From Escherichia phage EC.P1, in the sequence record PQ657772.1: a stretch of DNA of 64,000 nt, one strand, 5' to 3'. The first letter of the stretch is position 1. Every line of letters starts with the position of its first letter. The position numbers and the translations under genes were made by a program. The notes beneath the pieces were generated by a model. That model saw only the letters and a list, made by a program, of their open reading frames with translations. It had not been told where the DNA came from and ran no database searches. Positions 30,312 through 31,003 of this stretch are shown here, piece by piece.

Positions 30312-30461
30312 TCACTTCGTTCTCTCGTAACTCAAGAAGTCACTACGTTTACTTCGTAAACTAGTTCCTTCTGAAAATGATAATGTACTTTAAAAGCTTG
30401 ACGGGATTTGTTGAGGACTATTTCATCCCCCCGCAGGGGAATGAAGGTAATAAAAAAGAGA

Positions 30462-30484
30462 CAATTAAGTCTCTCTTGACGATG
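30462..30484 (-). terminator. rho-independent terminator closing the non-coding island
   Basis: Plus A-run 30462-30467 then hairpin AGAGAC aatta GTCTCT. Confidence 0.45.
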
Positions 30485-30965
30485 ATGGCATCGGATATTA
30501 TCGAATTGCGAATTTCTCAAATTTTGGACGGATCTTTCCTGTACCAAAATTTAGAGAGCGAAAGCGGGTTGCTCGGTTTCTCTCTATCGCAGTCATATGC
30601 AACGGTCGCTGGTCTTTTCATCAACAGCACTCAGTACTAAACTCTATTCGATCAAAGTAGTACCTGTTCTCAAATTTTGGACGCAACTTTCTTGTAAAAT
30701 CGCGTCCACAATCCTTGAACTCCCTTAGCAAATTCGTAAGGTGCGAACCTTATACATCTATCTAGGAACTCTCTGTGTGCTTATTGGAGTTCTTTATACA
30801 GCCGTGTCGCCGTGATTCGTGGTCTTATCTCGTGTTTGTTTGATTGCCAGTACTCTAACAGGTTTCTTTTGCTGTTCGCTACAACGGTAAAGCTCATCTA
30901 TCCTTTACATTTTCAAGAGAAGTAGGTTCTCATTATCCATTTTTCAATGTCCGTTGTCATTTTAC
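30485..30965 (-). ncRNA. candidate non-coding transcript(s) of unknown function
   Basis: ~480 nt with no credible ORF, bracketed by an extended -10 promoter and a terminator; contains two copies of CTCAAATTTTGGACG (plus 30516 and 30669), each in a stem-loop. Confidence 0.25.
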
Positions 30966-31003
30966 AATATACATTATATCACTAGGATGTATTATGTCCC
31001 GTT
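30966..31003 (-). promoter_or_regulatory. extended -10 promoter (TGATATAAT on minus strand) driving into the non-coding island
   Basis: Plus strand attatatcact at 30974-30984. Confidence 0.35.

Follow-up and report, generated by a model that had tools for sequence, protein, structure and literature searches.

A conserved, covarying RNA element of about 515 nucleotides in an intergenic gap of Escherichia phage EC.P1, with diverged copies across Rak2-like jumbo phages and in an Escherichia coli genomic island

The stretch of Escherichia phage EC.P1 analyzed here (sequence record PQ657772.1; 64,000 nucleotides (nt), hereafter the window) contains a 690-bp gap at positions 30312-31001, between the minus-strand open reading frames (ORFs) 29883-30311 and 31002-31415. 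The gap is one minus-strand non-coding element. Its core is a structured RNA of about 515 nt (30452-30966, from the inferred start to the end of a U-run) supported by covariation, with at least 16 conserved helices and two pseudoknot-type (non-nested) contacts. Homology continues past the U-run through a hairpin (P17), a conserved tail and two leader hairpins (E1 and E2), and the whole 690 bp are therefore taken up by a single element. The element represents a new family within an established broad class, that of the large ornate phage RNAs, and its genomic behaviour is unusual. On balance, the folded RNA itself appears to be the functional product, made by a stand-alone structured RNA gene. 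A sequence-only reading of the window had proposed that the gap could encode small RNAs, a structured regulatory RNA, an origin with iteron-like repeats or a decayed gene. The structured RNA is strongly supported by strand-specific covariation, and one large RNA of about 515-580 nt takes the place of the small RNAs.

The fold was assessed by covariation on two alignments, A1 and A2. A curated model of 91 pairs in 16 helices was counted on A2, which holds 25 diverged copies, and in the controls every 3' partner was slid by 1-3 columns. Paired cells made up 91.6% in the model against 39-43% in the slid controls, 55 pairs had changes on both sides compared with 14-19, and the covariation score was 0.418 versus 0.05-0.08; the observed values were reached in none of 500 shuffles. 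Helices P3, P4, P5, P7, P12 and P14 and the terminator were 96-100% paired, with the majority of their pairs covarying. In an independent RNAalifold prediction from 13 copies, 24 of the 81 pairs showed compensatory double changes. The minimum free energy of the window RNA is -133.7 kcal/mol (z = -4.09, against z = -3.05 for the opposite strand). Several G-U pairs recur, at alignment columns 436:447 in 24 of 25 sequences and at 675:690 and 676:689 in 23 of 25, while at 613:624 UG alternates with CG. On the opposite strand these G-U positions would read as mismatched A-C, and the promoter and terminator likewise lie on the minus strand, which is therefore the RNA strand. Two pairings were rejected: helix P6b, which contained A-C pairs, was dropped from the model, and the RNAalifold pairing of GGGA (within GCUAAGGGAG) with UCUC of the tail showed no covariation and loses an A-U pair through a U-to-C change in some copies.

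Several unpaired blocks are invariant or nearly so, namely GAAACCYGUUAG, CACGGCAAUGCGGC, GAUAGAYRUAURAGG, GCUAAGGGAG, GACCGUUGCA and GAGCAACCCGCUUUCG. The first non-nested contact is helix P1, in which 30957-30951 pairs with 30887-30881, the 3' strand lying within the loop closed by P4. The second joins the loop of P10 (AUCGAAU, 30652-30646) to 30506-30500 by 7 bp spanning 140 nt. This contact is 99.4% paired with four covarying pairs, and its sequence differs between paralogues (AUCGAAU/AUUCGAU versus AUUGUAU/AUACAAU). In principle it might be intramolecular or might link two molecules. The direct repeats that the sequence-only reading had placed in stem-loops were confirmed at 30514-30543 and 30667-30696 (27 of 30 positions identical); there are only two copies, 153 nt apart, and each forms the 3' side of one of a pair of long, similar hairpins (30720-30666 and 30557-30515), which are themselves variable appendages. 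Copies of the type in Cronobacter phage GAP32 have the first of these twin hairpins swapped for a short GCCA-GAAA-UGGC tetraloop hairpin, and the second is shortened in copies at locus B, described below.

The window region is 100% identical to Escherichia phages Ecwhy_1, fEgEco12 and Turkey3 and 97% identical to phage 121Q, all of which are Asteriusvirus, 350-kb Rak2-like jumbo myoviruses. A sensitive DNA search brought the total to 71 records, with the central ~480-530 bp found at 66-71% identity in other genera. Diverged homologues are present in Cronobacter phage GAP32, Pectobacterium phage CBB, Yersinia phage fHe-Yen9-04, Xanthomonas phage XbC2, Serratia phage BF and Salmonella phages 7t3 and Munch, and further ones in Erwinia and Klebsiella phages. 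In these other genera the element again occupies unannotated gaps of 0.6-0.9 kb with different flanking genes; in the GenBank records examined, the locus is either unannotated or carries short hypothetical coding sequences (CDSs). Every Rak2-like phage sampled (Asteriusvirus, Mimasvirus, Eneladusvirus and relatives) carries the family. Comparison with related phages thus finds the element conserved as a whole at the DNA level, and no ORF conserved within it.

Membership in the family was defined by a promoter, TGRRAYR-N(12-16)-TGnTATAAT; by the blocks GAAACCYGUUAG, CACGGCAAUGCGGC, GAUAGAYRUAURAGG...UAAGGGA, GACCGUUGCA and GAGCAACCCGCUUUCG; and by helices P3-P7, P10 and P12, the long-range contact, the U-run, P17 and a CAACAAAYCYCGUCA tail. 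The window copy has all of these and scores 521.6 bits with nhmmer (E = 2e-157). The motif GATAGAYRTATRAGG-N(12-26)-TAAGGGA is family-specific, as all 28 of its IMG/VR matches and 45 of 46 metagenome matches proved to be members. Where confirmed IMG/VR and metagenome members lie on long contigs, these are jumbo-sized (165-371 kb). Most small IMG/VR contigs matched by a 16-mer or by the P17 pattern were discarded as chance, as were all 120 matches listed for the exact 16-mer in bacterial genomes, in which nhmmer matched only around the 16-mer. Plasmids gave no family match, and no second copy was found inside the window with blastn or nhmmer.

Four copies are present in the genome of 121Q, as determined by profile searches of loci from three independent exact or gapped motifs. 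All four have the same strand orientation and they are spaced 55-112 kb apart. Copy A (247.4-248.1 kb) is the orthologue of the window copy, copy B (326.6-327.2 kb) lies between endonuclease VII and a baseplate-hub operon, copy C is at 192.7-193.4 kb, and copy D (~90.2-91.0 kb) follows an RpoD-like sigma factor gene. These paralogues are 60-75% identical to one another. At least 80% of the copy is held by 35 phage records for A, 35 for B, 33 for C and 29 for D, and other genomes contain at least two to three copies each. Altogether the copies form seven sequence clusters with 59-74% identity between clusters. Locus B recurs in Asteriusvirus, Eneladusvirus, 7t3/Munch and Erwinia phages. Because the same loci recur across genera and the clusters are only 59-74% identical, the paralogues are old. 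At locus B, which is set among recombination and replication genes (gp46/47-like, endonuclease VII), the element is divergent from one neighbour and convergent with the other, facing the 3' end of the baseplate-hub operon; there it is followed by a shared terminator only, with no downstream gene. Copies A, C and D and those of Mimas and Eneladus type are followed, immediately after the leader, by a gene in the same orientation.

Read from 5' to 3' on the minus strand, the core opens with a 5' pseudoknot region (30878-30957) made up of P1 and P4 with P2 and P3 in between. Six of the seven pairs of P1 (30957-30951/30887-30881) covary, and its lower paired percentage arises because MAFFT misaligns the variable 5' end. 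The P2 hairpin (30949-30938) is followed by the P3 hairpin (30925-30898), with double changes in seven of eight pairs and 96.5% of cells paired, and by P4 (30893-30891/30880-30878), which encloses the P1 3' strand and is 100% paired with two covarying pairs. P5 (30875-30871/30802-30798; 100% paired, three covarying pairs) encloses P6 (30861-30858/30813-30810; 100% paired), and the region that they span (30798-30875) holds the invariant blocks GAAACCYGUUAG and CACGGCRAYRYGGC. All six pairs of P7 (30792-30787/30771-30766; 99.3% paired) show double changes. P8 (30752-30748/30741-30737) is seen in every sequence, even though it is misaligned by MAFFT, and invariant CUAGAUAGAYRUAURAGG lies between P7 and P8 (30737-30792 region).

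Downstream of P8 is the unpaired segment GCUAAGGGAG (30720-30729, minus strand), which contains invariant UAAGGGA and resembles a Shine-Dalgarno sequence, being near-perfect in that it equals UAAGGAG with one extra G. In GAP32-type copies an AUG 6 nt after this segment opens a four-codon ORF, yet no peptide is conserved, and for that reason the segment may bind 16S rRNA or serve merely as a tertiary-contact motif, as far as its sequence suggests. Next come the first twin hairpin (P9, 30666-30720), whose 3' strand is the repeat copy 30667-30696, and the long hairpin P10 (30663-30654/30645-30634). The 3' domain (30500-30628) comprises P11 (30628-30608), invariant GACCGUUGCAUAUGAC (30607-30592), P12 (30591-30587/30511-30507; 100% paired, three covarying pairs), invariant GAGCAACCCGCUUUCG (30574-30559), the second twin hairpin (30557-30515) and the 3' strand of the P10 pseudoknot (30506-30500). 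The second twin hairpin carries the repeat copy 30514-30543, and all four pairs of its base, P14, covary. P15 (30492-30489/30481-30478) closes the series, with U-G in 13 sequences and C-G in nine. The GC content of the core is 0.40, against 0.36 for the window.

A promoter on the minus strand (30973-31000) consists of GGGACA at 31000-30995, a 16-nt spacer and the extended -10 element TGATATAAT at 30981-30973. It scores 10 of 12 consensus matches with the upstream TG present, in agreement with the extended -10 promoter of the sequence-only reading, and would start transcription at about 30966. A promoter is found at the same position in all copies, as TGnTATAAT with TGGGACA, TGGAACG or TGAAACG at about -35. 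The same class stands in front of genes at window positions 52178-52186 and 18766-18774 (both minus strand), where GGGACA is found ~14 nt upstream of TGATATAAT; these two further promoters suggest a phage-specific, middle-type class. In the genome paper of phage CBB a promoter class was described with a -10 box and TGAAACG in place of TTGACA, found in CBB and GAP32 chiefly ahead of DNA-synthesis genes (PMC5259590), and the promoter of the RNA matches this -35 class. If this class behaves like the middle promoters of T4, the RNA would be a product of the middle period of infection. A 21-nt sequence, GTGATATAATGTTTATTGTAA, at 26926-26946 (minus strand) is nearly identical to the promoter and start region of the RNA (GTGATATAATGTATATTGTAA); this possible internal promoter falls within ORF 26636-27115 or at its end.

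At the other end of the core is an intrinsic terminator, P16 (5-bp stem, 30473-30469/30462-30458; U6 at 30457-30452). A terminator had been placed at 30462-30484, and the hairpin-U6 is indeed present, though at 30473-30452. It covaries, with double changes in four of five pairs and 95.8% of cells paired. Paralogues C and D lack the P16 hairpin and keep the U-run, P17 and tail. The P17 hairpin (30445-30422) is 96.8% paired; two of its pairs are U-G in 23 of 25 sequences and C-G in the others, and a compensated variant is found in copy D. The conserved tail CCUCAACAAAUCCCGUCA (30416-30399, CCUCAACAAAUCYCGUCA) is followed by a variable AT-rich spacer (30398-30373; 79-93% AT across copies), and then by leader hairpins E1 (30372-30335) and E2 (30331-30303), the latter of which takes in the AUG of the downstream gene (30311-30309) together with its ribosome-binding region. 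Both hairpins fold in nearly all paralogues, with stems that differ and compensate (CAUUC/GAAUG, CAAUC/GAUUG, CAUAC/GUAUG, CUAAC/GUUAG). A late-promoter reading of a TATAAA-like motif after the tail was abandoned, being inconsistent across copies. The hexamer CGUCAA occurs at 30478-30483 and 30398-30403 (minus strand), at the ends of P15 and of the tail, and thus brackets the terminator and P17. Both sites are invariant as CGUCA in all copies, and the plus-strand TTGACG resembles a -35 box.

Outside phages, among 5,426 complete E. coli genomes the unit is intact in two, LR-29-1 (Ecuador) and EEC_W5 (Bangladesh). There the promoter TGGGATG-N13-TGTGATATAAT is followed by a complete set of invariant blocks, the two twin hairpins, terminator, P17 and tail, and the unit is unannotated in RefSeq. 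This copy is 80.6% identical to the locus-B copy of Serratia phage BF, with ten compensatory double changes between the two. The island that carries it is integrative and adjoins ffs; it contains a tyrosine integrase split by IS3, hypothetical genes, a resolvase and a candidate defence system (DuOB, DUF488, mSLOG-DUF4326, corresponding to PADLOC PDC-M45), and the neighbouring proteins in the island have no jumbo-phage relatives. An intact copy in the island implies that everything from promoter to tail can be transferred as one block and that this block has natural boundaries. Related islands were found in Klebsiella, Raoultella, Yersinia, Cronobacter, Phytobacter and others. The phage unit is missing from most of them, and defence-type genes, such as those for a SMODS nucleotidyltransferase or SIR2, are present in many. 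In a Klebsiella/Raoultella island at the same type of site, a phage-class promoter, a ~60-nt remnant, a terminator, a degenerate P17 and the exact tail CAACAAATCTCGTCA persist, and this derivative without the core stands upstream of a 498-amino-acid gene.

The islands themselves share a gene order, which runs from an integrase or large serine recombinase through a hypothetical gene of ~480-500 amino acids and a ~0.8-kb non-coding leader to genes of 257 and 118 (sometimes also 169) amino acids. Often a SMODS nucleotidyltransferase follows, and then a variable set of defence-type genes (PDC-M45 DuOB/DUF488/mSLOG, SIR2, PFIN, MazEF) and a resolvase. Representatives are L291 4700-15300 (E. coli LR-29-1, next to ffs) and L299; L292/L293 (Klebsiella/Raoultella); L294/L295 (Yersinia); L296/L297 and L302/L303 (Klebsiella); L298 (Cronobacter); and L300, L304 and L305. 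The subgroup linked to ffs with a tyrosine integrase carries the jumbo-phage promoter module, with the RNA full in E. coli and truncated in Klebsiella, and islands with this module may respond to jumbo-phage infection. The ~0.8-kb leader upstream of the 257-amino-acid gene is conserved between genera and has GATCG-rich repeats near the gene start. Recurring hairpins within it are TTAACTRC...GYAGTTARTGA and GTGAGTACTTGATAG (L292 5257-5341 and 3496-3565; L294 5260-5344; L291 9520-10200), and GTRAGTACTTGATA is present upstream of island integrase genes too. This leader may be a second, island-native structured or regulatory RNA. A phage origin for the E1-like and GTGAGTACTTGATA hairpins of the islands was rejected, since they are found in islands without the phage module and also upstream of integrase genes.

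Comparison with known RNAs gave no family assignment. No Rfam 15 model (4227 models, gathering thresholds) matched anywhere in the window, and at E <= 10 the region 30100-31200 gave three chance-level matches only (E 3.4-9; 13-18 bits versus thresholds of 37-55). ARAGORN reported no tRNA or tmRNA in the 64 kb, consistent with the earlier failure to fit a tRNA cloverleaf, and in a literature search no publication describing the RNA or the islands was found. The closest general likeness is to the ornate large RNAs of the ROOL, GOLLD and OLE type, Rfam families for which cryo-electron microscopy structures are available (PMC12286853). Like these, the element exceeds 500 nt, combines many conserved helices and pseudoknots with invariant unpaired blocks, and has its own transcription unit; those RNAs are often phage- or prophage-borne and have no known biochemical function. 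ROOL and GOLLD also assemble into homo-oligomers of RNA alone. Unlike them, the element does not lie beside tRNA genes, of which the 64-kb window has none, and gives no covariance-model match even at E <= 10. It also differs from all three in having four diverged paralogues per genome, in its occurrence in lytic Enterobacterales jumbo phages, and in the attached module of terminator, tail and leader. T4-type group I introns are likewise structured RNAs of a few hundred nt with a pseudoknotted core and several copies per T4-like genome. However, the present element is intergenic with its own promoter, has no Intron_gpI match at E <= 10 and a helix order other than P1-P9. A group I intron was accordingly rejected, there being no exons on either side of any copy and the neighbours differing between copies.

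In the related jumbo phage PA5oct, which shares core genes with the Rak2-like group, RNA sequencing has defined the non-coding RNAs ncRNA002 (451 nt) and ncRNA004 (619 nt), and one of the two accounts for up to 5% of phage reads (PMC7318152). These are similar to the present RNA in length and in being ORF-free. The loci of ncRNA001, ncRNA002 and ncRNA004 correspond to L062 8263-8498, L062 21951-22401 and L063 1617-2235. At its 3' end ncRNA004 has a C-rich/G-rich hairpin followed by a CUUCUCCGCCCGAAUAUCAUAAG tail, loosely like P17 and the tail, which could be analogy or chance; a resemblance of ncRNA004 to the family noted by eye was set aside as unsupported, no invariant block being present.

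How the RNA would act can be outlined. Host RNA polymerase, steered by phage middle-type promoter recognition, would make the RNA during infection. The weak hairpin-U6 terminator (5-6 bp) would free part of the transcripts as a ~0.5-kb RNA, and the remaining transcription would read through P17 and the tail into the leader and the downstream gene. The RNA might then serve as scaffold, decoy or catalyst, recognising a conserved partner via its invariant unpaired blocks. We favour the RNA as the product because locus B is a stand-alone unit, because invariant unpaired nucleotides and pseudoknots at such density are typical of RNAs that catalyse a reaction or bind a conserved partner, because there is no antiterminator alternative, and because the E. 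coli island keeps the entire fold. As every sampled Rak2-like phage carries it and an island has copied it, the RNA is probably important for infection. A bolder version is tentative and rather improbable: the RNA could be a new catalytic or self-assembling class, or a trans-acting reprogrammer of host transcription or translation on which the phage depends, with private kissing sequences for each paralogue and enterobacterial defence islands that stole the gene, along with its phage-only promoter, to jam that RNA or eavesdrop on it during infection.

Several observations weigh against a stand-alone RNA gene. Three of the four paralogues are directly followed by a co-oriented gene, and C and D have no terminator hairpin; much of the RNA may for these reasons exist only as a 5' leader. 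Homology extends beyond the terminator, which would be superfluous for a simple promoter-to-terminator RNA gene, and a consensus terminator scan did not call P16 with its U6, though the scan's stated criteria apparently apply to it. (The scan reported plus-strand 30556-30574 instead, the complement of the conserved GAGCAACCCGCUUUCG hairpin.) Four diverged copies kept at fixed loci fit a position-dependent role in cis at least as well as one in trans. The Klebsiella islands that lack the core but retain promoter, terminator and tail imply that the flanks are useful by themselves. Finally, the PA5oct non-coding RNAs gave nothing against the family at E <= 10 in nhmmer with all filters off, and contain no invariant block.

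In the main rival account the element would be a giant cis-acting leader whose fold acts on its own transcript or transcription complex, as a sensor or processive-antitermination element that governs passage of the hairpin-U6 and later terminators and so times the downstream gene; the islands would then have adopted the cassette as a switch for genes of their own upon jumbo-phage infection. This explanation is credible but on the whole unlikely. The order of promoter, structured RNA, terminator and genes is that of riboswitch and T-box attenuators, of HK022 put and of EAR. The core is always followed by a terminator (A, B) or a U-run (C, D) and then by conserved sequence, paralogues are kept at fixed loci, a co-oriented gene follows A, C, D and the Mimas- and Eneladus-type copies, and in the window E2 encloses the ribosome-binding region and AUG of that gene. 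In the islands, too, the module stands upstream of island genes, and the core-less derivative of promoter, terminator, P17 and tail precedes the 498-amino-acid gene. However, no conserved complement to the 5' arm of the terminator was found within 220 nt upstream in the 25 copies. The L035 and L024 sequences alone have a single 6-nt match (G-U allowed) to the arm, at one shared position, and as this match is the sole one there is no conserved riboswitch-type antiterminator. The downstream genes are mutually unrelated, locus B has none, and in the Klebsiella derivative the cassette persists without the core. To our knowledge, the core exceeds all known leader and antitermination RNAs (put, EAR, T-box) five- to eightfold in size. 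A riboswitch or attenuator leader in the usual sense was rejected on the lack of a conserved antiterminator and of a downstream gene at locus B, and there is no Rfam match to such RNAs.

A role as origin transcript is less probable still. The 350-kb genome would then have several origins, with each copy marking one of them and combining features of T4 oriF/oriG and of ColE1 RNA II: the middle-type promoter would make a folded pre-primer RNA that would stay hybridised to the AT-rich DNA behind the tail. A start at a middle-type promoter and several copies per genome are shared with oriF/oriG, and the promoter class is reported upstream of CBB DNA-synthesis genes. ColE1 RNA II is a folded RNA of ~550 nt whose structure matters, a likeness in size that counts for this explanation. 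The four copies are dispersed at 55-112 kb in a single orientation, the variable spacer after the tail is 79-93% AT, locus B lies among gp46/47-like and endonuclease VII genes, and an island with the unit could be amplified by the phage replisome. Unlike these systems, though, the unit contains an intrinsic terminator, with the hairpin-U6 lying ahead of the AT-rich stretch in copies A and B. Features that form R-loops are limited to a single G6 run, no sign of an unwinding element was seen, and conservation is far higher, the long-held invariant unpaired blocks being unlike the fast-evolving origins of T4 relatives. No GC-skew inflection was seen at the locus, but this counts for little, as replication in T4-like phages is largely recombination-driven. 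The iteron-like origin of the sequence-only reading did not hold in that form, as there are only two repeats, each the 3' strand of one of the paralogous RNA hairpins, and one or both are missing or shortened in other paralogues.

That the element is a non-autonomous mobile or selfish one, intron-like or ribozyme-based, which spread to four sites and to the island with no function for the phage, we consider very improbable. It occurs in several copies per genome, the promoter-to-tail block has moved horizontally into an island whose neighbouring proteins have no jumbo-phage relatives, and a CGUCAR motif is repeated at the ends of P15 and the tail. However, identities of 59-74% show the copies to be old, and different genera have them at matching loci; they carry a promoter of their own, do not lie within genes, and show no flanking target duplication, no Rfam group I or II intron match and no consistently adjacent reverse transcriptase or nuclease.

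A decayed gene or small coding ORFs, such as 121Q gene 516 or the short hypothetical CDSs that submitters annotated in several records, can be all but set aside: mechanically called ORFs of 87 amino acids (30377-30640, plus strand) and 71 amino acids (30332-30547, minus strand) do occur in the gap, so that it is not strictly ORF-free as had been claimed, but among the 25 copies no ORF is conserved, strand, frame, position and length differing in every copy (the longest merely 46-55 amino acids in some), and substitutions follow base pairing and not codons.

Large and highly conserved structured RNAs are rare, and the earlier ones (RNase P, introns, OLE, ROOL, GOLLD) each opened new biochemistry. 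The present RNA is among the most conserved DNA segments of a clade of 350-kb phages under therapy development against E. coli, Klebsiella, Salmonella and Cronobacter, and culturable carriers for experiment exist in 121Q, PBECO4 and phAPEC6 on E. coli. The island copies mark the natural boundaries of the functional unit, and the island with an intact copy, together with its core-less relatives, points to islands responding specifically to jumbo-phage infection. If the reprogramming and theft proposed above were true, giant phages and host islands would be engaged in an arms race at the level of RNA.

The genes around the gap are on the minus strand. Downstream, ORF 29883-30311 is a homologue of 121Q gp517 and is annotated as hypothetical in Ecwhy_1 and 121Q; upstream, ORF 31002-31415 is a gp515 homologue annotated in both as a structural protein. 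In Asteriusvirus an HNH endonuclease gene (31811-32422, minus strand; Ecwhy1_269, 121Q gp513) precedes the RNA gene by ~0.8 kb; as it is missing at the equivalent loci of other genera, it probably has no connection with the RNA. Under a mechanical criterion the gap is the second-longest internal stretch of the window without long ORFs, and not the longest as had been thought, since 17460-18278 (819 bp) exceeds it. Two further such stretches are 57429-57977 (549 bp) and 51734-52213 (480 bp). None of the three contains a copy of the RNA family, and extended -10 promoters are present in the latter two.

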